11,507 nucleotides of DNA, taken from a virus (taxonomy: Duplodnaviria > Heunggongvirae > Uroviricota > Caudoviricetes). A program made the position numbers and the translations under genes. This document shows, piece after piece, positions 1 to 11,507 of the stretch. The first letter of the stretch is position 1. The number at the start of each line of letters is the position of its first letter. Location of the stretch: IMG/VR virus record IMGVR_UViG_2740892442_000015; one strand, written 5' to 3'. A model generated the notes under the pieces. The model was not told the origin of the DNA, did not search any database, and saw only the letters and a list, made by a program, of their open reading frames with translations.

Positions 1-468
1 TTTTGAATATGGAAATAAATCAATTATATTGCCAATTATTCCATCTTTTTGACAAAAGAGAATTATTATTAGATAAATGAAAGTAAACGTAATAAATGAG
101 ATGAAAACTTTCATAAATGCCATAAAGTTATATTTTAACGTGGGCATCTGTGTTTTTTTATGTTGTATTGACATCATCTGAAGAAACATCTCGGGTTTGG
201 ATAGTGTTGCAAATATTGTGAAACCAGCAATGAGAAAACCTAAGGTTGTCACTGCAAAGTTAAAACCAATCAAAGCCCAGTTTCTAATGTCAGATACTAA
301 ATGAGACATATCCTTCTCAATAAAAAAAGAGTTTGTTAATAAAAAAATAGATGCTGTGAGCAAAATGCAAATATGGAATGTACTAATAGTAATCCGTTTG
401 CAGAGCAAGTAAACATCCCAAAGGTTTTTCTCTTTGGTTATTTCTTTAGCATCTATTTTATTTATCAT
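1..468 (-). CDS. Partial ORF (first 156 codons; C-terminus lies beyond window start) encoding a predicted multi-pass membrane protein; last gene of the repressor-linked operon
   Basis: My own translation of the minus strand from ATG 468-466 to position 1 is open for 156 codons with no stop (MINKIDAKEITKEKNLWDVYLLCKRITISTFHICILLTASIFLLTNSFFIEKDMSHLVSDIRNWALIGFNFAVTTLGFLIAGFTIFATLSKPEMFLQMMSIQHKKTQMPTLKYNFMAFMKVFISFITFTFIYLIIILFCQKDGIIGNIIDLFPYSK...). The start overlaps the TGA stop of the upstream gene (ATGA at 465-468). It has several long hydrophobic stretches. It is absent from the supplied ORF track, probably because it has no stop inside the window. In this very AT-rich DNA an open frame of this length is unlikely by chance. 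Confidence 0.6.
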   Translation of the reverse strand, partial: MINKIDAKEITKEKNLWDVYLLCKRITISTFHICILLTASIFLLTNSFFIEKDMSHLVSDIRNWALIGFNFAVTTLGFLIAGFTIFATLSKPEMFLQMMSIQHKKTQMPTLKYNFMAFMKVFISFITFTFIYLIIILFCQKDGIIGNIIDLFPYSK

Positions 469-1493
469 CGACCAAACCTTTCATATATATTGCTAATAAT
501 TCTAATCGTCTTTTGTGAAAGAGAACGGGGTAGAGATATCTTACCTTCTTCTACAAGATTTTCATACCGCTCATAACTTTCATTTGCAGCTACTACCGTA
601 TCCTTTGATAATTCATTCATCTCACTTAACAAAACAAAGTCATCATTGCTACCTTTGATTATATCACCATTGTCATCATATCCTTTAATATTTATTCCTG
701 AATTAGCCAATCTGGTTGCTGATGTGAGTTGTTCTAAAACAGCACCATGATTCAAGCCTGAATCGGTGTTTGAAAAGCGAATAGATGTAGAAATACTTCC
801 CATTTCGTCTCCGGCACTTTCAAGTGACTCCCAAAATTCGTCGTTATCAATTTCTTCTTGATTTGTAGGGAGAAGTTTTACTGAGACATTTTGGATTTTA
901 TTAAAATTATCAATAAATTGCTCTAGGCTTTGTTTGTCAGTTAACGGCGTTATTCTTAGCTTCGGGCGTTTGATTTCGTTCCGTAAGCTTTTTTTAGTGA
1001 CTCGAGGTAAGTCAGGGTTTTCTTTGCGTTCTTCTTGTGCGGTTTCGTATAAATGAGATATGTATTTTTCATATTCTATGTTTAAGAAACACTGACTTGT
1101 TGACTGAAAGTTTTGAATTGTGGGAGCACCACTAACTTCCTTGCAAAGAATTAATCTGTGAGTGTTTAATATTAGAAGAAAGAAAGAGCTCGGGGCTGTT
1201 TCAAGCTCTTTATGATCTTCAACCAGATCAGCACCATCAAATACTTGTTCTCTGGTTAATAATGTATTCTTAATAATCCGACCTTTAATTCCGAGTACTG
1301 GGGGTGTTGCTTCTTCGTCAAGTATGACGCATTCAGTATCAATGAAAAAGAACTCTGATTTGTCAGATATTCTGCGGATGTTTGCCATCTCCAAAAAAGA
1401 GGGGAAAACAATTTCATCATAATAGTCTAGCAAAACATCATCACCAAAACGGAGAGTATAATTTCCAAATTCGAGTTTTTTTATAAAATCCAT
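465..1493 (-). CDS. Hypothetical 342-aa protein, acidic and Ser/Asn-rich, no motif I recognise (no P-loop, no tyrosine-recombinase signature); middle gene of the repressor-linked operon
   Basis: ORF from the track. A GAGG Shine-Dalgarno sits about 8 nt upstream of the ATG at 1493. It lies 15 nt downstream of the repressor gene on the same strand, and its stop overlaps the start of the next ORF. Spot counts give roughly 30 percent GC, far below the tail genes. Confidence 0.8.
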   Translation of the reverse strand: MDFIKKLEFGNYTLRFGDDVLLDYYDEIVFPSFLEMANIRRISDKSEFFFIDTECVILDEEATPPVLGIKGRIIKNTLLTREQVFDGADLVEDHKELETAPSSFFLLILNTHRLILCKEVSGAPTIQNFQSTSQCFLNIEYEKYISHLYETAQEERKENPDLPRVTKKSLRNEIKRPKLRITPLTDKQSLEQFIDNFNKIQNVSVKLLPTNQEEIDNDEFWESLESAGDEMGSISTSIRFSNTDSGLNHGAVLEQLTSATRLANSGINIKGYDDNGDIIKGSNDDFVLLSEMNELSKDTVVAANESYERYENLVEEGKISLPRSLSQKTIRIISNIYERFGR

Positions 1494-1508
1494 TACTATG
1501 CCTCAAGA

Positions 1509-2387
1509 TTAAATAGTACGGTACTGTGAGAAAATTTTGGCAACTAATTTTATATCTTCTTTTTCACAATCAAATGTTAAATCATCGTCTGTTACTCGAA
1601 GATTGCCTCCAGGTAATAGAAAAATTTGTTTTAACTTGAAATTATTTTGGTATTGAACAATCCATCTTCCGTCTTCAACATTAGCTTTATTCATGTGTGC
1701 AATATTTATGCAATGTTCGTCTTCAATTGCGAGTAAATCATTAAAATGAGGAAGCAGGGACTTATCTATCAATAAATGACCAGCATCGAAAATTTGATTG
1801 TCAATAAGTTTTACTTTAGGAATTTCTAAAGCTTCACTTTCTTCGCTTCCAAGTTTTTGCCCGCGCCCAGTTGCTAACCATAAAAGAGAAGTTCTTGTTT
1901 CCAACGAGCATCTTATGATCCAGTCAGCTGGGAATGTGTCTCGCAAGTATCTATTCGCCATTGTGCTTTTAGACACATTCAAATGGTCGGCAAGTTCTTG
2001 TCTTGTTTTAAAGCCATACGCTTCCATTAGCCTGTTTATCGCATTACGTCCACCTGAATCCAGATTTGGATGGTTCACAATTGGGTTCTCGTTGGTGGTG
2101 GCTTTGGGAACATATTGAACCAATGATGCTGGTTCCTCTAATTTAGCGGGAACTTCGGTATTCTTAGGAAATGGCACGCCTTTTCCGAATGAGAGCCACT
2201 CTATAGATGCTCCTGTTTCAATTGCACACTGAATTACCCAGTCAGCAGGAAATGCGTCACGCATCCAGCGCGTTCCCATAGTACTTGCAGATACATTGAA
2301 CTGTTCACATAGGGCTTGCCGCGTCTTGAATCCATACGCTTCAAGCATGCGCGTTATGACTGCCTGTCCTCCGTTTTTGAAATTCAT
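1509..2387 (-). CDS. Phage CI-type repressor-like protein with two tandem N-terminal HTH domains (186 CI-like family) and a C-terminal LexA/S24-like domain that appears degenerate
   Basis: Residues about 8-70 (VITRMLEAYGFKTRQALCEQFNVSASTMGTRWMRDAFPADWVIQCAIETGASIEWLSFGKG) and about 115-177 (AINRLMEAYGFKTRQELADHLNVSKSTMANRYLRDTFPADWIIRCSLETRTSLLWLATGRG) are about 60 percent identical to each other and match my memory of the phage CI repressor HTH domain. The C-terminal part (GRWIVQYQNNFKLKQIFLLPGGNLRV) resembles the LexA/CI S24 fold, but I see no G-x-S-M motif. The gene is divergent from an Apl/Cro-like gene. Confidence 0.8.
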   Translation of the reverse strand: MNFKNGGQAVITRMLEAYGFKTRQALCEQFNVSASTMGTRWMRDAFPADWVIQCAIETGASIEWLSFGKGVPFPKNTEVPAKLEEPASLVQYVPKATTNENPIVNHPNLDSGGRNAINRLMEAYGFKTRQELADHLNVSKSTMANRYLRDTFPADWIIRCSLETRTSLLWLATGRGQKLGSEESEALEIPKVKLIDNQIFDAGHLLIDKSLLPHFNDLLAIEDEHCINIAHMNKANVEDGRWIVQYQNNFKLKQIFLLPGGNLRVTDDDLTFDCEKEDIKLVAKIFSQYRTI

Positions 2388-2512
2388 CTAGTACGCCTTT
2401 GAGTAATATTGAGTTGATACTTCTCAAATGAAGAATTAATGTGTGCGAAAGTGAACTTGACGGTGTTAATCACCAGTTACCACACATCATGTTAATCGAG
2501 GAATCTTGCATC
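2388..2512. promoter_or_regulatory. Divergent intergenic switch region between the repressor gene and the Apl/Cox-like gene; likely carries both promoters and operators
   Basis: 125-nt gap between divergent start codons. TTGACG at 2457-2462 is a -35-like hexamer. The 8-mer TGTTAATC occurs twice (2464-2471 and 2490-2497). GGTGTTAATCACC at 2462-2474 has inverted 4-bp arms. A further TTAAT lies in the gaattaatgtg stretch just upstream. Confidence 0.45.
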
Positions 2513-2734
2513 ATGACTCCACATATTTCAATCACCTTAGCTGTTCCATCTGTTTCTATTGAGAAATACAGCGAACTGACTGGCTTATCTATCGACACCA
2601 TCAATGACATGCTGGCTGATGGACGTCTTATTCGCCATCGTCTCCGTAAGGATAAAAAGCGAGAAAAGGTGATGATCAATATCGCAGCAATGACTGTTGA
2701 TGCACTCGCTGAATGCAATTTGAGCATTAACTAG
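2513..2734 (+). CDS. Small HTH DNA-binding protein, Apl/Cox/Cro-like (73 aa)
   Basis: First gene transcribed away from the repressor. ATG at 2513 gives MTPHISITLAVPSVSIEKYSELTGLSIDTINDMLADGRL..., which contains an HTH-like segment. The track ORF starts at 2441 from an upstream codon, so the exact start is uncertain (another in-frame ATG lies at 2489). Confidence 0.55.
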   Translation: MTPHISITLAVPSVSIEKYSELTGLSIDTINDMLADGRLIRHRLRKDKKREKVMINIAAMTVDALAECNLSIN

Positions 2735-2748
2735 TTCCATTTTGGGTT

Positions 2749-3276
2749 ATGTCAGAGATGTCGAATATGTTTGATTACCAAGTTTCCAAACATCCACATT
2801 TTGATGAAGCCTGTCGTGCATTCGCATTGCGCCACAACCTGGTGCAACTGGCAGAACGTGCTGGCATGAATGTGCAGATTCTGCGGAACAAGCTGAACCC
2901 AGCTCAACCTCATTTATTAACCGCACCAGAAATCTGGCTGCTTACCGATCTGACTGAAGATTCAACGCTGGTAGATGGTTTTCTGGCACAGATTCATTGT
3001 CTGCCATGTGTACCGATTAATGAGGTGGCAAAAGAGAAACTGCCACATTACGTCATGAGTGCAACCGCAGAGATCGGGCGTGTTGCTGCAGGTGCGGTAT
3101 CTGGCGATGTAAAAACCAGTGCCGGTCGTCGTGATGCCATCAGCAGCATTAATTCTGTAACACGACTGATGGCGCTGGCGGCTGTTTCATTGCAGGCCCG
3201 TTTACAGGCTAACCCTGCGATGGCGAGTGCAGTTGATACTGTGACTGGCCTCGGTGCTTCATTCGGTTTGCTGTGA
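2749..3276 (+). CDS. Phage regulatory protein CII-like (phage 186 CII / CP76 family)
   Basis: 175-aa ORF. Segments such as [23 protein letters not shown] and [28 protein letters not shown] match my memory of the 186 CII family. It sits directly after the Apl-like gene, as in phage 186. An alternative start at ATG 2767 (MFDYQ...) is possible. Confidence 0.75.
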
Positions 3277-3283
3277 GGTGCTT

Positions 3284-3580
3284 ATGCTGACGAAAGAACC
3301 ATCATTTGCATCGCTGCTGGTAAAACAAAGCCCGGCAATGCACTACGGTCACGGCTGGATCATGGGAGAGGATGGTAAACGCTGGCATCCATGTCATTCA
3401 CAAGATGAATTGCTGTCTGAATTGACCACGAGAAAATGGAGAAAGTCCAAATGTATGCGGCAGAAAGTGAAGTGGTTTATCAGTTTCGTTACAGAGGGGA
3501 GAGTTATTCAGTACCTGAAGATGATTTGCTCTGTTGCTATCCGTCGTTGTCGGGCGATGGTAGCTACTTTTTCACGCTAA
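3284..3580 (+). CDS. Hypothetical small protein (98 aa from ATG 3284); coding status uncertain
   Basis: ATG at 3284 is preceded by GAGGTG and lies 8 nt after the CII-like stop. The C-terminal half overlaps the next ORF in another frame and has odd composition (rich in W, C, R, K). Confidence 0.3.
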   Translation: MLTKEPSFASLLVKQSPAMHYGHGWIMGEDGKRWHPCHSQDELLSELTTRKWRKSKCMRQKVKWFISFVTEGRVIQYLKMICSVAIRRCRAMVATFSR

Positions 3581-3675
3581 AGGATGGAACCTTTATACGT
3601 GGTGAAAAAGTACAAGAAGTGATGCGTATAAAGACATCACCTCTTGAACGTTATCGGCGAAGTATTTATCGGTAA
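3436..3675 (+). CDS. Hypothetical small protein (79 aa, or 74 aa from ATG 3451)
   Basis: ORF from the track. GGAG at 3437-3440 precedes the ATG at 3451. Amino-acid composition is balanced. It occupies the position of the small fil/dhr-type genes after cII in 186-like phages, but I do not recognise the sequence. Confidence 0.45.
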   Translation: MEKVQMYAAESEVVYQFRYRGESYSVPEDDLLCCYPSLSGDGSYFFTLKDGTFIRGEKVQEVMRIKTSPLERYRRSIYR

Positions 3676-3914
3676 CGATCTATCAGTGTCTGTATCAGAT
3701 GAGTGAATTCTTGTTGTTTAACCGAACCTAAAGGAAGTTTGTTTAATTCTTCGCGGAGGAGCTCAAAAAATGCAGATTGATTTGCTGAGTCAGTTCGAAA
3801 TAAGGAGTGGATCAGACCTGAAACAAGAATTCGTTGAACAGCAACCTCATCGCGAAGACTGGAGATCTCGTTTTCAAGTTGCTCTAAACGCTCTCTTTCA
3901 ACCGGGTTCAACAT
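3666..3914 (-). CDS. Hypothetical 82-aa protein with a coiled-coil-like N-terminus
   Basis: ORF from the track. On the minus strand an AGGA Shine-Dalgarno lies about 7 nt upstream of the ATG at 3914. It is divergent from the 113-aa ORF and its 3' end overlaps the plus-strand ORF ending at 3675 by 10 nt. Confidence 0.5.
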   Translation of the reverse strand: MLNPVERERLEQLENEISSLRDEVAVQRILVSGLIHSLFRTDSANQSAFFELLREELNKLPLGSVKQQEFTHLIQTLIDRYR

Positions 3915-3995
3915 TGATGATTCCTTCTAGCTATCAATATGTTGGTAATGGATCATATCAAAAATTTTTTAGTAGATGTGTTGTGGGATGCATAA

Positions 3996-4337
3996 ATGGC
4001 TATTGAAGGCGCTGCGGCGACTGTTCCATTAAGTCCCGGTGAACGCCTGAATGGACTTAATCACATAGCGGAATTAAGGGCGAAAGTATTTGGCCTGAAT
4101 ATTGAGTCAGAGCTTGAGCGGTTTATTAAAGATATGCGTGATCCACGGGATATCAATAATGAACAAAATAAACGGGCACTGGCTGCCATATTCTTTATGG
4201 CAAAAATTCCAGCTGAACGTCATAGCATCAGCATTAATGAGCTGACCACTGACGAAAAGCGGGAGCTGATTAAAGCAATGAATCATTTTCGTGCAGTGGT
4301 GAGCTTATTTCCCAGACGGCTAACCATGCCGAATTAA
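3996..4337 (+). CDS. Hypothetical 113-aa phage protein; lies just upstream of the tape measure region but could not be confirmed as a tail assembly chaperone
   Basis: ORF from the track with a weak Shine-Dalgarno (GGGA). I found no open -1 or +1 frame extending it toward the tape measure start, so a canonical chaperone frameshift arrangement is not supported. Confidence 0.55.
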   Translation: MAIEGAAATVPLSPGERLNGLNHIAELRAKVFGLNIESELERFIKDMRDPRDINNEQNKRALAAIFFMAKIPAERHSISINELTTDEKRELIKAMNHFRAVVSLFPRRLTMPN

Positions 4338-4404
4338 CCAACTAATGAAATTAATGGCGTAAACCCGCCGGGCATCCCTTTATCTAAATTCAGGAGAATT
4401 GATT

Positions 4405-4638
4405 ATGCGTAATATTGAAATCCTCACGACTAAAACCGGACCGGATGACGCAGGGCTTAATATTTTACTGACAGAGGCTCGTCTGGAAGAACGTCGGGCA
4501 AGGGCTGAAGCAATGGCAGCTCGCCTTGATAGCCTGGCGTGTCATATCACATCCCGCCAGCTAAACCACGTCAAAGCGGCAGAACTGCTGCGTGTAACTG
4601 CTGAAGCAATCCAGAACGAAGCGCAGGAGATCCACTAA
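4405..4638 (+). CDS. 77-aa ORF with a strong ribosome-binding site, in the same frame as the tape measure ORF and separated from it by one TAA; possibly the N-terminal part of a disrupted tape measure gene
   Basis: AGGAG at 4393-4397 lies 7 nt upstream of ATG 4405 (the track starts at TTG 4399). The stop TAA at 4636-4638 is followed two codons later by the tape measure ORF start in the same frame (4645-4405 = 240, a multiple of 3). The protein is helical and Ala/Arg/Glu-rich. Confidence 0.5.
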   Translation: MRNIEILTTKTGPDDAGLNILLTEARLEERRARAEAMAARLDSLACHITSRQLNHVKAAELLRVTAEAIQNEAQEIH

Positions 4639-4644
4639 TGGCTG

Positions 4645-7011
4645 ATGCAATGGATCTCGTACACCCGCAATATTGAACAGCTCGGTGATGCGCTGAACTA
4701 TCTGGATGATAACGCCATGTCGAAAGGGGCAGACATCATTGATGTGATGCAACGTCTGGGCGGTGTGGCTGACCGTCTGGATTATCGTAAAGCGGCGGCG
4801 CTGGGTTCCACCTTCCTGACACTGGGCGCTGCGCCAGAGGTTGCAGCCAGTGCAGCAAACGCGATGGTGCGTGAATTGTCCATTGCCACCATGCAAAGCA
4901 AGAGTTTCTTTGAAGGGATGAATCTGCTGAAACTCAATCCTGAAGTGATTGAAAAGCAGATGACGAAGGATGCGATGGGAACTATCCAGCGTGTGCTGGA
5001 GAAGGTGAACGCACTGCCGCAGGACAAGCGTCTGTCTGCCATGACCATGTTGTTTGGTAAAGAGTTTGGCGATGACGCGGCGAAACTGGCAAACAACCTG
5101 CCGGAACTACAGCGCCAGCTAAAACTGACAGCGGGCAATGATGCGCTCGGTTCCATGCAGAAAGAATCCGACATCAACAAGGACTCACTTTCTGCTCAGT
5201 GGTTGCTGGTTAAAACCGGAGCGCAGAATACCTTCAGCAGCCTGGGCGAAACGCTGCGCCAGCCGCTGATGGATATTCTGTACACGGTGAAAAGCGTTAC
5301 GGGAGCGTTGCGTCGCTGGGTGGAAGCTAACCCGGAACTGACGGGCACACTGATGAAAGTAGCCGCTATTGTGGCTGCGGTTACCGTAGGCCTCGGCACC
5401 TTGGCTGTGGCGCTGGCTGCAGTGCTGGGGCCGCTGGCAGTCATCCGTCTGGGATTCTCTGTGCTGGGCATCAGAACGTTACCTTCCGTTACGGCAGCAG
5501 TAACACGAACCAGCAGCGCGTTGTCCTGGCTGGCTGGCGCACCACTGGCACTGCTGCGACACGGGCTTGCTTCATCGGGTAACGCAGCGGGTTTACTTAC
5601 TGCGCCGTTGTCGTCTTTGCGCCGTACGGCATCACTGACGGGAAATGTCCTGAAAACTGTTGCAGGTGCGCCGGTTGCACTTTTGCGGTCTGGATTATCC
5701 GGTTTACGTGCGGTTGCTGTGATGTTTATGAATCCTCTGGCGGTACTGCGCGGTGGACTGACCGCTGCAGGTACGGTGCTGCGAGTACTGGCATCTGGTC
5801 CACTGGCGATGCTGCGCGTTGCCCTGTATGCCATATCTGGTCTGTTAGGTGCTCTGCTCAGTCCGATAGGTCTAGTGGTTACTGCACTGGCAGGCGTGGC
5901 GCTGGTTGTCTGGAAATACTGGCAACCCATCACCGCATTTCTCGGTGGCGTGGTGGAGGGATTCAAAGCGGCGGCAGGTCCCGTCAGTGCCGCATTCGAA
6001 CCACTTAAGCCTGTGTTCCAGTGGATTGGCGACAAAGTGCAGGCGCTGTGGGGCTGGTTTACTGACCTGCTGACGCCCGTTAAGTCGACCTCTGCCGAAC
6101 TGCAGAGTGCAGCGGCAATGGGGCGACGATTCGGGGAGGCCCTGGCGGAAGGGCTGAATATGGTCATGCATCCGCTGGACTCCCTGAAATCCGGCGTTTC
6201 CTGGTTGCTGGAGAAACTCGGCATTGTCAGTAAAGAGGCCGCAAAGGCAAAACTACCGGAAAGCGTGACGCGTCAGCAACCTGCGACGGTGAATGCAGAC
6301 GGCAAAGTGATGATGCCATCGGGTGGTTTTCCATCATGGGGATATGGCTTTGCGGGGATGTATGACAGCGGCGGGTATATCCCGCGCGGGCAGTTTGGCA
6401 TCGTCGGTGAAAACGGGCCGGAAATTGTTAACGGCCCGGCAAATGTGACCAGCCGGAGAAATACAGCTGCACTGGCTGCCGTTGTTGCCGGAATGATGGG
6501 CGTTGCTGCCGCGCCAGCAGAGCTTCCACCGTTGCACCCTTTGGCACTTCCCGCGAAAGGTGGAGAAGCAATTGTGAGTCGCGCAGCCACTGTGCCGCTC
6601 GTTCAACGGATTGAGGCACCGACGCAGATCATCATTCAGACGCAGCCAGGACAAAGTGCGCAGGATATTGCGCGGGAGGTGGCACGCCAGCTTGATGAAC
6701 GTGAACGCAGGCTGAAGCAAAAGCCAGGAGTAACTACAGCGATCAGGGGGGATACGACGCATGATGATGGTGCTGGGATTGTACGTGTTTATGCTGCGCA
6801 CCGTTCCGTATCAGGAACTGCAGTATCAACGCAGCTGGCGACATGCGGCAAACAGTCGGGTAAACCGACGTCCGTCCACGCAGTTTCTGGGACCGGAAAA
6901 CGACATGCTGACGCTTTCCGGTGTTCTTATGCCGGAGATAACAGGCGGCAGGCTGTCGTTGCTGGCACTGGAGCAGATGGCAGAACAGGGGAAAGCATGG
7001 CCCCTGATTGA
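4645..7011 (+). CDS. T: Phage tail tape measure protein (P2 gpT-like); probably disrupted at both ends, since the 3' 250 nt of this ORF overlap gpU
   Basis: The N-terminal region (GADIIDVMQRLGGVADRLDYRKAAALGSTFLTLGAAPEVAASAANAMVRELS) matches my memory of the tape measure core motif. A central hydrophobic region carries repeated xPLAxLRxGL motifs. It sits immediately upstream of gpU and gpD. The ATG at 4645 has no Shine-Dalgarno within normal spacing. Translation past about 6760 looks like out-of-frame junk and overlaps the recognisable gpU frame. Confidence 0.85.
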   Translation: MQWISYTRNIEQLGDALNYLDDNAMSKGADIIDVMQRLGGVADRLDYRKAAALGSTFLTLGAAPEVAASAANAMVRELSIATMQSKSFFEGMNLLKLNPEVIEKQMTKDAMGTIQRVLEKVNALPQDKRLSAMTMLFGKEFGDDAAKLANNLPELQRQLKLTAGNDALGSMQKESDINKDSLSAQWLLVKTGAQNTFSSLGETLRQPLMDILYTVKSVTGALRRWVEANPELTGTLMKVAAIVAAVTVGLGTLAVALAAVLGPLAVIRLGFSVLGIRTLPSVTAAVTRTSSALSWLAGAPLALLRHGLASSGNAAGLLTAPLSSLRRTASLTGNVLKTVAGAPVALLRSGLSGLRAVAVMFMNPLAVLRGGLTAAGTVLRVLASGPLAMLRVALYAISGLLGALLSPIGLVVTALAGVALVVWKYWQPITAFLGGVVEGFKAAAGPVSAAFEPLKPVFQWIGDKVQALWGWFTDLLTPVKSTSAELQSAAAMGRRFGEALAEGLNMVMHPLDSLKSGVSWLLEKLGIVSKEAAKAKLPESVTRQQPATVNADGKVMMPSGGFPSWGYGFAGMYDSGGYIPRGQFGIVGENGPEIVNGPANVTSRRNTAALAAVVAGMMGVAAAPAELPPLHPLALPAKGGEAIVSRAATVPLVQRIEAPTQIIIQTQPGQSAQDIAREVARQLDERERRLKQKPGVTTAIRGDTTHDDGAGIVRVYAAHRSVSGTAVSTQLATCGKQSGKPTSVHAVSGTGKRHADAFRCSYAGDNRRQAVVAGTGADGRTGESMAPD
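5520..5880 (+). repeat. Degenerate in-frame tandem repeats inside the tape measure gene
   Basis: Peptide motifs APLALLRHGL, APLSSLRRT, APVALLRSGL, NPLAVLRGGL and GPLAMLRVAL recur at intervals of about 20-25 residues. The corresponding DNA segments (ccactggcactgctgcg, ccgttgtcgtctttgcg, ccggttgcacttttgcg, cctctggcggtactgcg, ccactggcgatgctgcg) repeat at a period of about 65 nt. Confidence 0.5.
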
Positions 7012-7246
7012 AGGCAGCGGCACGATTTACGGCATGTATGTGATTGAGGGACTGAATCAGACTAAAACGGAGTTTTTCCGCGACGGTATGCCGCGCCGGA
7101 TTGAGTTCACCCTGTCGCTCAAACGGGTGGATGAATCCCTGTCCGATATGTTCGGTGATCTCAGTGCGCAACTGAATAATCTGCAGGACACGGCAACGTC
7201 TGCCTTAAGTGATATCAGTAAAACGGTGGGAGGGCTGCTGTCGTGA
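6761..7246 (+). CDS. U: Phage tail protein U (P2 gpU-like), 161 aa
   Basis: ORF from the track starting MMMVLGLYVFMLRTVPYQELQYQRSWRH..., which I recognise as P2 gpU-like. Its length is close to P2 gpU, and its stop overlaps the gpD start (GTGA at 7243-7246). Confidence 0.9.
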   Translation: MMMVLGLYVFMLRTVPYQELQYQRSWRHAANSRVNRRPSTQFLGPENDMLTLSGVLMPEITGGRLSLLALEQMAEQGKAWPLIEGSGTIYGMYVIEGLNQTKTEFFRDGMPRRIEFTLSLKRVDESLSDMFGDLSAQLNNLQDTATSALSDISKTVGGLLS

Positions 7247-8343
7247 ATTTCAGCTCAGAACTGCTTAACAAAGGCAACAAAACTCCCGCATTCAGCATCA
7301 GTATTGAGGGCAGGGATATCACCACTGTGCTGGATAACCGCCTGATGAGTTTGACGCTGACGGATAACCGGGGCTTTGAAGCGGACCAGCTTGATCTGGA
7401 GCTGGATGACGCTGACGGAAAAATCGTGCTGCCGCGCCGTGGTGCGGTCATTACGCTGGCGCTGGGCTGGAAGGGGCAGCCGCTTTTCCCGAAAGGGGCA
7501 TTCACAGTGGACGAGATTGAACACACTGGCGCACCGGACCGCCTGACTATCCGGGCGCGAAGTGCTGATTTTCGGGAAACGCTGAATACCCGCCGTGAAA
7601 AATCGTGGCATAAGACCACCGTCGGGGAAGTGGTGAAGGAAATAGCCGCGCGGCACAAGCTGAAGATGGCACTGGGTAAAGACCTGTCGGATAAGCCCGT
7701 GGAGCATATAGACCAGACTAATGAGAGTGACGGCAGTTTTCTGATGCGGCTGGCGCGACAGTACGGTGCCATCGCGTCGGTGAAAAATGGCAATCTGTTA
7801 TTCATCAGGCAGGGGCAGGGCAAAAGCGCCACTGGTAAACCTCTGCCAGTGATCACTATCACACGCAAGGACGGCGACAGTCACCGATTTACCCTGGCAG
7901 ATCGCGGAGCCTACACGGGCGTAATTGCCAGCTGGTTGCATACCCGCGAACCTGCGAAGAAAGAAAGCACCACGGTGAAGCGTAAGCGCAGAACTAAGAA
8001 GCAGAAGAAAGAGCCGGAAGCGAAGCAGGGCGATTACCTGGTGGGTACGGATGAAAACGTGCTGGTACTTAATCGCACTTATGCCAACCGGAGCAACGCC
8101 GAACGAGCGGCGAAAATGCAGTGGGAACGCCTGCAACGCGGCGTTGCGTCATTCTCGCTACAACTGGCGGAAGGGCGGGCAGATCTCTACACGGAAATGC
8201 CAGTGAAAGTCAGTGGCTTTAAACAGCCGATAGATGATGCGGAATGGACTATTACCACCCTGACGCATACTGTCAGCCCGGATAACGGTTTTACGACCAG
8301 TCTGGAGCTTGAAGTGAAGATTGATGATTTCGAAATGGAATGA
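7243..8343 (+). CDS. D: Phage tail protein D (P2 gpD-like, late control D family), 366 aa
   Basis: ORF from the track with a GTG start overlapping the gpU stop. It holds the gpD position between U and ogr, as in P2, and the sequence matches my memory of the family. Confidence 0.9.
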   Translation: MNFSSELLNKGNKTPAFSISIEGRDITTVLDNRLMSLTLTDNRGFEADQLDLELDDADGKIVLPRRGAVITLALGWKGQPLFPKGAFTVDEIEHTGAPDRLTIRARSADFRETLNTRREKSWHKTTVGEVVKEIAARHKLKMALGKDLSDKPVEHIDQTNESDGSFLMRLARQYGAIASVKNGNLLFIRQGQGKSATGKPLPVITITRKDGDSHRFTLADRGAYTGVIASWLHTREPAKKESTTVKRKRRTKKQKKEPEAKQGDYLVGTDENVLVLNRTYANRSNAERAAKMQWERLQRGVASFSLQLAEGRADLYTEMPVKVSGFKQPIDDAEWTITTLTHTVSPDNGFTTSLELEVKIDDFEME

Positions 8344-8433
8344 TTCTTCGCAATGGAGAACTTTTAAGTTTTCAAAATGGAATAATGCGGTATCATTATT
8401 GTGAATTTAGCAAAAATGGGGAGAACTCGAAAA

Positions 8434-8652
8434 ATGATGATTTGCCCACTGTGTGGAAGTGCCGCCCATACTCGCAGCAGTTTTCAGGTATCTTCATTGA
8501 CCAAAGAGCGTTACAACCAGTGCCAGAACATTAACTGCAGCCATACTTTTGTTACTCATGAAACTTTTGTTCGTTCGATTGCAACGCCAAAAGAGTCAAA
8601 TCCGGTTCAGCCGCATCCAATGAAATCAGGACAGGTGGCGCTCTCTCTTTGA
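8434..8652 (+). CDS. ogr: Ogr-type zinc-finger late transcription activator (P2 Ogr / 186 B family), 72 aa
   Basis: MMICPLCGSAAHTRSS...NQCQNINCSHTF carries the C-x2-C...C-x4-C zinc-finger pattern and resembles P2 Ogr in length and sequence. It is the last phage gene before host DNA, as in integrated P2. The track ORF starts upstream at 8401 from an alternative start codon. Confidence 0.85.
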   Translation: MMICPLCGSAAHTRSSFQVSSLTKERYNQCQNINCSHTFVTHETFVRSIATPKESNPVQPHPMKSGQVALSL

Positions 8653-8732
8653 CGCTGCCGCCATTTTGTCGCCATCGTTAAAAAACAGTGCTTCTAACAT
8701 CATGATTTTAAAGAGCATAAATTTCAGGCAAC

Positions 8733-8775
8733 AAAAAACCCATCAACCTTGAACCGAAATGGCGGGGTTGATGGG
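8733..8775 (-). terminator. Rho-independent terminator candidate for minus-strand transcription, probably the ybjL terminator
   Basis: Perfect 10-bp inverted repeat CCCATCAACC (8739-8748) and GGTTGATGGG (8766-8775). On the minus strand the stem is followed directly by TTTTTT (complement of the A run at 8733-8738). The loop is long (17 nt), but its outer bases can partly pair. Confidence 0.5.
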
Positions 8776-8887
8776 CTCCACAAAATGGGGACATCAAAGA
8801 AAAGCAGTGGCACTAATTAAGACTGATGCCCTGCGGAAAAGTTCTGCGGTTGTGCAAAAAAATTTCATTTTCAGGGCAACTTCAGTT

Positions 8888-10573
8888 TTATCCTAATCCT
8901 GGCCATACCATGACGATGATTGTCCCTGCCAGCGTCAGCAGGACGTTGGCGATTGCATAGGTGCCCGCATAGCCCAGCGCCGGGATGTTACTGCGAGCTG
9001 TATCACTGATGATCTCCATTGCCGGCGCGCAGGTACGTGCGCCCATCATTGCGCCGAACAACAGCGCGCGGTTCATTCGCAATACATAAGCACCGAACAA
9101 GAAACAGATAACCACGGGCACCAGACTGACAATCAATCCGGCAATCAACATCTGACCGCCAATCGCGCCCAGGCCGTTATTAATACCGCTACCGGCGCTC
9201 AGACCAACGCCTGCCATAAACACCATCAAGCCGAACTCTTTCACCATGCTTAATGCACCCTGCGGAATGTAACCGAAGGTCGGGTGGTTAGCACGCATAA
9301 AGCCCAGCATAATTCCGGCGAATAACAACCCGGCAGCGTTCCCCATGCCGAAACTGAATGTGCTGAACTGGAAGGTGATCATCCCGATCATCAGCCCAAT
9401 AACAAAGAAGGCGCAGAATGCCAGCAGGTCAGTGACCTGGCTGTGAATCGAGATAAAGCCGATGCGATCGGCGATGGTTTTTACGCGGCGGGCATCGCCG
9501 CTGACTTGTAAAACGTCACCTTTGTTAAGCACGACGTTGTCATCTATCGGCATCTCAATCTGGCTACGAATGACGCGGTTAAGGAAGCAACCGTGATCGG
9601 TCAACTTCAGTTGTGCGAGACGTTTACCTACAGCGTTATGGTTTTTAACGACCACTTCTTCAGTGACGATACGCATGTCGAGAAGGTCACGATCGAAAAC
9701 TTCTTTACCGTTACGGAAGCTGGGATCGAGTCGGGCATGGGCGTCGGGATAGCCTACCAACGCTATTTCATCGCCCATTTGTAGCACGGCATCACCGTCT
9801 GGATTTGCCAGAATCCCGTTACGTCGAATACGTTCAATGTAGCAGCCGGTTTGTCGATAAATACCCAGTTCACGCAGATTTTTGCCGTCGGTCCAGGCCA
9901 CCAGTTCCGGGCCGACGCGATAGGCGCGGATCACCGGTAAATAAACCTTACGGTTGGCATCAGTGTCCAGGCCACGTTCGCGGGCGATTTGCTGGGCGCT
10001 GGTCTGTAAGTCCTGATGCTGCAATTTCGGCAAGTAACGCGCACCAACAATCAAACTCACCAGACCGATTAAATAGGTTAAGGCATACCCGAGGCTCAGA
10101 TTATCCAGTGCCAGTGAGAGCTGCCTGCTTTCCATGCCGGAATGACGCAGTGTATCGCCAGCACCGACCAGAACCGGTGTCGACGTCATAGAGCCTGCTA
10201 ACATACCGGCCGTCAGGCCAATATCCCAGCCAAACAGCTTACCTAACCCTAAGGCGATCACCAGCGCACTGCCAACCATCACCAGTGCTAACATTAGGTA
10301 ATTTTTCCCATCGCGAAAAAAAATGGAAAAAAAGTTCGGTCCGGCTTCGACCCCGACGCAGAAAATAAACAGCATAAAGCCAAGATTAAGCGCATCGGTG
10401 TTAATGCTGAAATGTTGTTGGCCTAATAACAGCGATACGACTAAAACGCCAATGGAATTACCCAGTTGGATCGAACCAAGTCGTAACTTTCCGAGACATA
10501 GCCCAAGCGCGAGGACCACAAATAATAACAGAATGTAATTCCCATTTAACAATTCGGCGACGTTTATATTCAC
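8888..10573 (-). CDS. ybjL: Putative transport protein YbjL (AAE-family membrane transporter with internal RCK/TrkA-C-like domains), 561 aa
   Basis: ORF from the track. The length and sequence ([25 protein letters not shown]...) match my memory of E. coli YbjL. Hydrophobic N- and C-terminal blocks flank a soluble central region. It is adjacent to ybjM and grxA, as in the E. coli chromosome. Confidence 0.93.
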
Positions 10574-10842
10574 GGAGGCTAACTTCTTGTTTACTAGTAA
10601 GCTGTTGAAAGAAATGGTAATTTACGATAATGTTTTTTACCAGAATTCAGGGCGCAGATTCATTCAGCGCACCTAAACGATAGTAAAGTAACAATATATT
10701 TTACTAGTGTAATCACATTAGGTATCAACGGCTATATGAATTGCGTTGGCCTATATTAGCATGGAATGCGAAGCGGCTTTATCTTACTGAACGCCACACT
10801 GGCGAAAAATGTGTTCGATAGACGCAGTGTCAGGAGGAACGA
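10574..10842. promoter_or_regulatory. Divergent ybjL / ybjM promoter region
   Basis: 269-nt AT-rich gap between divergent start codons. The motif TACTAGT occurs twice (10595-10601 and 10702-10708). AGGAGG lies about 8 nt upstream of the ybjM GTG start. Confidence 0.4.
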
Positions 10843-11220
10843 GTGAAACATAAACAACGTTGGGCGGGGGCAATCTGCTGTTTTGTCCTCTTCATTGTGG
10901 TGTGCCTTTTTCTGGCGACGCACATGAAAGGCGCTTTTCGGGCTGCCGGGCATCCTGAAATCGGCTTGCTATTTTTCATTCTTCCTGGAGCAGTCGCCAG
11001 CTTCTTTTCACAGCGTAGAGAAGTCCTGAAACCTCTGTTTGGCGCAATGCTGGCGGCACCCTGTTCGATGCTCATTATGCGGCTGTTTTTTTCACCGACG
11101 CGCTCATTCTGGCAAGAGCTGGCATGGTTACTAAGCGCGGTGTTCTGGTGTGCGCTGGGGGCACTGTGTTTCTTATTTATCAGTAGTTTGTTTAAACCAC
11201 AGCACAGAAAAAATCAGTAA
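10843..11220 (+). CDS. ybjM: Inner membrane protein YbjM, 125 aa
   Basis: ORF from the track with a GTG start and a strong upstream AGGAGG. The protein is hydrophobic. Its position between ybjL and grxA matches the E. coli gene order. Confidence 0.85.
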   Translation: MKHKQRWAGAICCFVLFIVVCLFLATHMKGAFRAAGHPEIGLLFFILPGAVASFFSQRREVLKPLFGAMLAAPCSMLIMRLFFSPTRSFWQELAWLLSAVFWCALGALCFLFISSLFKPQHRKNQ

Positions 11221-11240
11221 AGCCCTCAACGCGAGGGCTT
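11220..11240 (-). terminator. GC-rich hairpin between convergent ybjM and grxA; likely the grxA terminator
   Basis: AAGCCCTC aacgc GAGGGCTT forms an 8-bp stem with a 5-nt loop. On the minus strand it is followed within about 7 nt by TTTTTT. On the plus strand no U-run follows, so it is a poorer terminator for ybjM. Confidence 0.4.
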
Positions 11241-11249
11241 GTCAGACGA

Positions 11250-11507
11250 TCAGGCGTCCAGATTTTCTTTCACCCATGCAGCAAAATCGGTATAGCCGCC
11301 GATATGTTGCTGATCGACAAAAATCTGCGGCACGGTTTCTACGGGTTTACCTGCCTTTTGTTGTAGATCTTCTTTAGTGATCCCTTCCGCACGAATATCT
11401 ACATACTGATACTGAAAATCATCGCGTTCATTGCTCAATTTCTCAGCCAGATCTTTTGCACGCACACAGTAAGGGCAACCCGAACGACCAAAAATAACGG
11501 TTTGCAT
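11250..11507 (-). CDS. grxA: Glutaredoxin 1 (complete; start codon is at the last bases of the window)
   Basis: 85-aa ORF MQTVIFGRSGCPYCVRAKDLAEKL... with the CPYC active site. It matches my memory of E. coli GrxA in length and sequence. Confidence 0.95.
   Translation of the reverse strand: MQTVIFGRSGCPYCVRAKDLAEKLSNERDDFQYQYVDIRAEGITKEDLQQKAGKPVETVPQIFVDQQHIGGYTDFAAWVKENLDA

Follow-up and report, generated by a model that had tools for sequence, protein, structure and literature searches.

At the edge of a viral DNA stretch of 11,507 nucleotides (IMG/VR record IMGVR_UViG_2740892442_000015; hereafter the window), the end of the sequence cuts through a membrane-protein gene, which we call B, that directly follows a gene, A, for a soluble protein with the fold of lambda RexA. 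By analogy with characterized systems, we consider the two genes to be probably a cI-linked, RexAB-type abortive-infection cassette of a defective 186/P2-like prophage, in which A would serve as sensor and B as membrane effector. The A-B pairing and its tight junction are invariant, and the cassette resides on prophages and other mobile elements and here occupies an immunity-operon position; an interaction between A and B, pore formation and an anti-phage function would follow by analogy. The original prediction recognized a real membrane gene and missed the identity of the pair, namely a RexA-fold protein and a membrane partner in the position of RexB within a prophage immunity operon.

The minus-strand frame of B had been predicted to stay open from the ATG at 468-466 to window position 1, and re-translation recovers the same 156 stop-free codons, with first residues MINKIDAKEITKEKNLW; the remaining two minus-strand frames of this region contain 17 and 10 stops. 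Such a frame had been judged improbable, and at the local base composition 156 open codons are expected by chance with P ~4e-6. When the full B gene was shuffled 2,000 times, the longest ORF over six frames had a mean length of 58 codons and was at most 145 codons long; the real sequence has 226. Window positions 1-468 are identical to the matching part of Escherichia coli TUM10008 (L001:11033-11713), where the B stop codon lies 213 nt past window position 1, with no early stop just outside the window, and the full product is 226 aa. B is absent from the supplied ORF track for the sole reason that ORFs crossing the source end were not listed; its earlier description as unlisted holds for that track but not for public RefSeq, which carries it as hypothetical protein WP_000608638.1. 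Table 1 gives the coordinates of B and its neighbours. On the opposite strand, the ORF track lists a 67-aa ATG-initiated ORF (window 373-576) antisense to the A/B junction; in DNA this rich in AT, it is probably fortuitous.

Table 1. Coordinates of the cI-A-B region in the window.
Feature	Position	Strand	Remarks
B, first 156 of 226 codons	1..468	-	TM1-TM3 and conserved cytoplasmic loop in the window; RexB position
B remainder: TM4, C-terminal cytoplasmic helix, stop	beyond window position 1	-	from the L001 extension
ATGA overlap	465..468	-	B start (468-466) over A stop TGA (467-465); -4 nt junction
AAAGG Shine-Dalgarno-like motif	477..481	-	8 nt upstream of B start, inside the A 3' end; atatatgaaaggtttggtcg followed by ATG
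A, 342 aa, soluble, lambda RexA/RdgC fold	465..1493	-	obligate gene upstream of B
cI-A spacer, 15 nt	1494..1508	-	between cI stop and A start; GAGG at 1501-1504
186-type CI immunity repressor, 292 aa	1509..2387	-	PF07022 (2 stretches, E 4e-59) and PF16452; PGAP 'phage repressor protein CI'

At least three long hydrophobic segments had been predicted for the B product. A Kyte-Doolittle scan finds them at residues ~26-50, 65-89 and 115-141, together with a fourth at ~160-196 that lies outside the window. Lysine and arginine are enriched in both the N-terminal segment and the C-terminal tail as well as in the 90-120 loop, and the predicted topology is thus N-in/C-in. An AlphaFold2 model built with 63 homologues is confident (pLDDT 86.9, pTM 0.77) and contains long helices at 30-50, 54-89, 110-138 and 155-224, the last of which continues as a cytoplasmic helix. 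The hydrophobicity scan and the model both predict a four-helix inner-membrane protein; the truncated gene had already been read as encoding a membrane protein.

The frame of B is conserved: an alignment of 32 homologues, from 89% down to 42% identity, contains 45 invariant columns. Conserved elements are an N-terminal motif (T-x-E-K-x-L-W), TM2 (GFLIAGFTIFAT..KP), the central cytoplasmic loop (TLKYNF..FMKVF) and the end of TM4 (F.FN.Y....M..LRW), with peaks of conservation in TM2 and the cytoplasmic loop and not in the periplasmic loops. Synonymous saturation made dN/dS mostly incomputable, and pN and pS are given instead. Across five enterobacterial relatives and the Vibrio and Stutzerimonas orthologues, pN (0.13-0.38) lies far below a saturated pS (0.71-0.89), which points to purifying selection. 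B is thus a genuine, conserved gene under purifying selection.

The gene immediately upstream encodes a protein with the RexA fold, a two-domain, RdgC-related architecture, and by analogy A is probably a cytoplasmic, DNA-binding dimer. Neither A nor B has a match in Pfam, PADLOC, PHROGs or NCBIfam, and sequence comparison of both with the PDB returned only noise. The -4 nt A/B overlap also occurs in Kosakonia and is found in at least eight species-level loci or lineages, and the AAAGG motif ahead of B, a putative Shine-Dalgarno sequence, is kept in Kosakonia as well. This junction geometry makes the translational coupling of A and B claimed by the original prediction plausible.

Homologues of the two proteins are numerous and uniformly anonymous: a database of 5.8 billion sequences yielded 280 for B and 167 for A, all unnamed or annotated as hypothetical. 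A profile search with B returned 505 clusters at 50% identity, of which 410 had E <= 1e-10; lengths of 200-240 aa prevail in nearly all of the clusters. With one genome taken per species, we identified 26 B loci in Gamma-, Beta-, Alpha- and Deltaproteobacteria, Cyanobacteria, Verrucomicrobiota, Armatimonadota and Abditibacteriaceae. An HMM scan of all ORFs found B directly preceded by a same-strand A homologue in every informative locus (25/25). The two genes likewise adjoin each other in 17/17 IMG/VR viral contigs and in 64/64 fetched loci overall, many of which are redundant, and the junctions across fetched loci mostly measure -4 to +6 nt. A Salmonella branch of the family (89% identity) is very abundant, with single sequences present on 578 and 222 contigs.

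One protein of 531 aa (P0255) has the appearance of an A-B fusion, its N-terminal 246 residues being A-like (hhalign 99.8%) and residues 319-518 forming a B domain. The linker resembles out-of-frame translation; we rejected a natural fusion in favour of a likely frameshift or gene-call artefact and counted the protein as evidence of A-B adjacency only.

Window positions 1-2500 match 13 of 5,426 complete E. coli genomes at >=99.8% identity, and these carriers come from different hosts and countries. The gene order in TUM10008 begins at ybjL with ogr, gpD, gpU, a 5'-truncated tape-measure gene, DUF2732, DUF5347, Fil and CII, and continues with a small divergent gene followed by cI, A, B and int, beyond which lies rcdA. 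The element is a 186/P2-like prophage in a defective state: it lacks replication gene A, the capsid genes and most tail genes, and only T', U, D and ogr remain beside ybjL. In the window, the early-region gene DUF2732 (~4405-4638) abuts the tape-measure gene within positions 4405-7011 on the plus strand; the latter lacks its N-terminus and is marked as a pseudogene by PGAP.

The cI, A, B, int order is shared by 186-like prophages of Kosakonia, Serratia, Dickeya and Raoultella, by 12 IMG/VR contigs and by the viable Peduoviridae Klebsiella phage 4LV2017; with the 15-nt cI-A spacer, it is found in six enterobacterial genera, 4LV2017 and the 12 IMG/VR contigs. A cI-int defence hotspot has already been described in Vibrio P2-related phages (Rousset et al.). 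The B homologue of 4LV2017 (NC_047818.1; L014:1244-1849, minus strand; 201 aa, 39.5% identical) has no RefSeq feature, and 12 phage records related to 4LV2017 likewise contain a B homologue. The integrase ORF of this phage reaches position 1154, compared with an annotated CDS end at 1082.

The CI protein of the window consists of two tandem Phage_CI_repr HTH domains and a Phage_CI_C domain. Relatives in Kosakonia, Serratia and Dickeya encode a single-HTH CI of 187-198 aa, and the duplicated form is common to STEC005, Raoultella and 4LV2017 (313 aa). We considered whether the double-HTH cI might be a local recombination artefact of the arrival of the AT-rich module and rejected this, because sister prophages, Raoultella and 4LV2017 share the architecture, which is thus a lineage trait.

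Beyond these prophages, the pair occupies diverse settings, and 41 of the 64 loci have no 186-type cI nearby. It ends corticovirus-like prophages in Vibrio parahaemolyticus and V. vulnificus, sits on islands with integrase, toxin-antitoxin and restriction-modification genes in Halomonas, Nitrosomonas and Vibrio, and forms part of a small chromosomal islet in Stutzerimonas. An integron context was sought for the examined Vibrio members and not found; these lie in prophages or mobile elements instead.

We presume cI to be the first gene of a cI-A-B lysogenic operon. At 15 nt, the cI-A spacer is too short for a separate promoter or terminator, and a consensus scan found no terminator-like site within it; scanning for promoters and terminators was otherwise uninformative (8 promoter-like sites against 10.6 expected). 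From their position, cotranscription of cI, A and B in the lysogen is most likely. Between the B stop (11713) and the int ATG (11804) of TUM10008, L001:11745-11790 contains a promoter-like TTGACA-CTGTataaaaaaACAG-TATAAA with an embedded LexA-box-like motif, and this sequence is kept in Kosakonia (L002) and Serratia (L010). Its presence suggests that in these prophages a separate promoter under SOS control serves int and that a cI-A-B transcript need not enter int.

Base composition also groups the three genes. GC3 is 0.30 in B, 0.28 in A and 0.33 in cI, compared with 0.50 in int, 0.62-0.64 in tail genes and 0.58 in host genes. The codon frequencies of B correlate with those of A (r = 0.60) and cI (r = 0.58), and at most at 0.35 with those of int, tail genes and host genes; a comparison of codon usage with the 342-aa gene thus bears out the reading of B as a coding sequence. 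The compositional break is sharp, with window positions 1-2387 (cI, A, B) at GC3 0.28-0.33 set against 2388-11507; int, CII, tail and flanking host genes have GC3 values of 0.42-0.64, and the AT-rich block reaches into cI. The GC content of B is 27-37%, and the A/B pair is AT-rich in every host.

Drawing on lambda RexAB, Sucellos, RexABpp and the CarolAnn/Sbash type as analogues, we propose that A and B would be expressed in the lysogen along with cI, as in lambda cI-rexA-rexB. In this scheme A, probably a dimer that binds DNA, would sense a superinfecting phage from the cytoplasm and, once activated, switch on B. B might then oligomerize into a pore or channel, and the resulting collapse of membrane potential or integrity would arrest growth and abort the infection.

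We also weighed other functions for the pair. The location of A in the immunity region, where it follows cI after 15 nt, would suit a pair that mainly tunes the lysis-lysogeny decision of the prophage, with A binding DNA or repressor as lambda RexA does without RexB, and B modulating or antagonizing A. We consider this unlikely as the main role, since the pair also occurs apart from a phage switch or 186-type cI (in Stutzerimonas, Halomonas, Nitrosomonas, a Vibrio mobile element and corticovirus-like prophages), the majority of loci noted above have no such cI nearby, and the pair has been kept in this defective prophage, where no lytic genes are left for it to control. Such a role would nonetheless be compatible with defence, and the two are not mutually exclusive.

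The degraded state of the prophage, with its replication, capsid and most tail genes gone and its tape-measure gene truncated, raises the question of whether the cassette is an inert passenger in this strain, intact in sequence and either silent or decaying. A is interrupted by a nonsense mutation in one of the 13 E. coli carriers, some E. coli encode a B truncated to 173 aa, and a GC content of 28-35% would be typical of xenogeneically silenced DNA. Against this, cI, A, B and int are intact in the lineage of the window and >=99.8% identical in 13 genomes, and the whole family is under purifying selection. We regard inertness as quite improbable; it bears in any case on activity in one strain and not on the identity of the genes.

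Loci in which A is broken speak to the dependence of B on its partner. A is disrupted by nonsense mutation, splitting, IS insertion or decay in five loci (L001:10008-11036, L046:5977-7004, L043:5975-6999, L044:6388-6999 and L025:1144-2044). In four of these B is intact, A having suffered a nonsense mutation (TUM10008), splits (a Raoultella-type prophage and Halomonas) or an IS insertion (Nitrosomonas); both genes have decayed in L025. The four independent losses indicate that B is apparently tolerable without A, in keeping with the mechanism proposed above. They could also be taken to mean that B excludes superinfecting phages by itself, through a block of DNA entry or an envelope change, and that A is only a regulator or chaperone. 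Sie-type proteins are small prophage membrane proteins that act in superinfection exclusion, and such proteins often work in this manner. For B, however, the invariant adjacency to A across phyla and the tight junction favour a two-component machine, the validated analogues Sucellos, CarolAnn and Sbash require both genes, and conservation is strongest in TM2 and the cytoplasmic loop, not in periplasmic loops, so that we give a stand-alone B very little weight. Least probable of all is a toxin-antitoxin-like addiction module that stabilizes the mobile element, with toxin B neutralized by A: overlapping AT-rich genes on mobile elements, often beside bona fide toxin-antitoxin pairs, would suit it, but loss of A with B intact should then kill and is found in four independent loci, and the fold of A is that of a DNA-binding sensor and no known antitoxin fold.

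A RexAB-type abortive-infection cassette thus remains the reading we favour, and A/B is an ordinary kind of system in an unrecognized and widely distributed version. RexAB has been known for longer than any other abortive-infection system, and how it works is not settled; to our knowledge, RexB has no solved structure and no recognizable relatives. The A/B family, whose membrane partner is a different one and is modelled with confidence, offers another way into the question of how a DNA-binding sensor in the cytoplasm turns on a membrane effector. It also exposes an annotation gap: hundreds of genomes of Salmonella and E. coli list the pair as 'hypothetical', and it is missed by family and defence libraries. 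Prophage cassettes like this one can alter the phage susceptibility of clinical Enterobacteriaceae and are thus relevant to phage therapy and typing.

Among known systems, the closest in kind is Rex. A has the RexA fold, B is a four-TM protein encoded immediately downstream, and the two are placed on a prophage, in or next to the presumed repressor operon; A/B is most likely a RexAB-type two-gene exclusion system on a prophage, a known kind. The layout of cI, rexA and rexB in lambda is the same as that of cI, A and B here, whereas lambda RexA (PF15969; PDB 8TWQ) and RexB (PF15968) have no sequence-level similarity to A and B. The RexA and RexB models of Pfam (E <= 10) and PADLOC (E <= 1) did not match A or B, while the lambda proteins themselves scored E 1e-97 and 8.5e-92 (Pfam) and 9e-110 and 8.6e-61 (PADLOC). 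Profiles of A and B aligned with lambda RexA and RexB at hhalign probabilities of 1.4% and 0.4%. The proteins also differ in size (A 342 aa versus 279 aa; B 226 aa versus 144 aa), and B has in addition, relative to lambda RexB, the N-terminal cytoplasmic T-x-E-K-x-L-W motif and the long C-terminal cytoplasmic helix. A/B is carried by a phage of 186/P2-like and not lambdoid type, in a slot bounded by cI and int.

Sucellos (SclA/SclB), the nearest candidate for the identity of A/B, was described from the Vibrio cholerae chromosomal integron as a pair that is RexAB-like by predicted structure without a Pfam Rex domain match (Darracq et al., bioRxiv 10.1101/2024.07.02.601686). Both genes are required, the system acts by abortive infection, SclB is a predicted transmembrane pore, and homologues outside Vibrio are 'often in Salmonella' prophages (10.1101/2024.07.02.601686). 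The encoding genes are probably VCA0367-VCA0368. Compared by description only, these Salmonella prophage homologues recall the abundant Salmonella branch of the A/B family; Sucellos has further been reported from a Nitrosospira phage in DefenseFinder-based work, and the A/B family has a Nitrosomonas member. On the other hand, Sucellos lies in an integron and the examined Vibrio A/B members lie in prophages or mobile elements, and the best 120 matches of either A or B included no V. cholerae-named or very high-count cluster, so that any relationship would be distant. On a comparison by description only, we think it possible, and lean somewhat against it, that the A/B family would be classed as Sucellos.

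RexABpp (PP_5643/PP_5644) of Pseudomonas putida prophage P1 combines a DNA-binding A protein with membrane damage that is stimulated by A and dependent on B (PMC12894663). Compared by description only, it differs from A/B in having two extra genes between the pair and cI (PMC12894663). Rex-like systems of actinobacteriophages comprise CarolAnn gp44/gp43, Sbash gp30/gp31 and Butters gp30/gp31. The CarolAnn/Sbash type pairs a DUF4747-related soluble protein of ~370 aa with a four-TM protein of 165-178 aa and is expressed from the prophage; the CarolAnn pair is cotranscribed with the repressor, both genes are required in CarolAnn and Sbash, and the mechanism proposed for the type is a sensor and an ion channel. 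Its hosts are Actinobacteria. The E. coli A protein has no match to DUF4747 (PF15931), 5 of 71 A-family members match below the gathering score (best E 1.2e-4), and the A homologues of Halomonas and V. vulnificus have precomputed matches at E <= 1e-5. Sbash gp31 scored against the B model at noise level only (E 4.9). We rejected Kiwa, which consists of a four-TM KwaA and a DUF4868 KwaB: A/B has no KwaA/KwaB match, and its membrane gene does not come first.

The PADLOC candidate PDC-M18 occupies the identical cI-to-int slot of a sister prophage at ybjL/rcdA in 18 E. coli genomes. In STEC005 (L015:7076-8801) it comprises a soluble A protein of ~400 aa and, after a 1-nt gap, a 173-aa B with four hydrophobic segments; this cargo matches the PDC-M18A and PDC-M18B HMMs at E 1e-36 and 5e-24. 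As a relative of A/B it was rejected, with an hhalign probability of 0.1% and A and B lacking a PADLOC match. Setting these comparisons side by side, those with Sucellos and RexABpp by description only, we tentatively suggest that A/B may constitute a large, phylum-spanning unnamed family that combines a RexA-fold sensor with a four-TM effector unrelated to RexB and that is distinct from lambda Rex, Sucellos and RexABpp. This would imply recurrent pairing of RexA-fold sensors with different membrane effectors, and the cI-int slot of 186/P2-like enterobacterial prophages may be a hotspot where cassettes of a soluble sensor and a four-TM protein, such as A/B and PDC-M18, are swapped.
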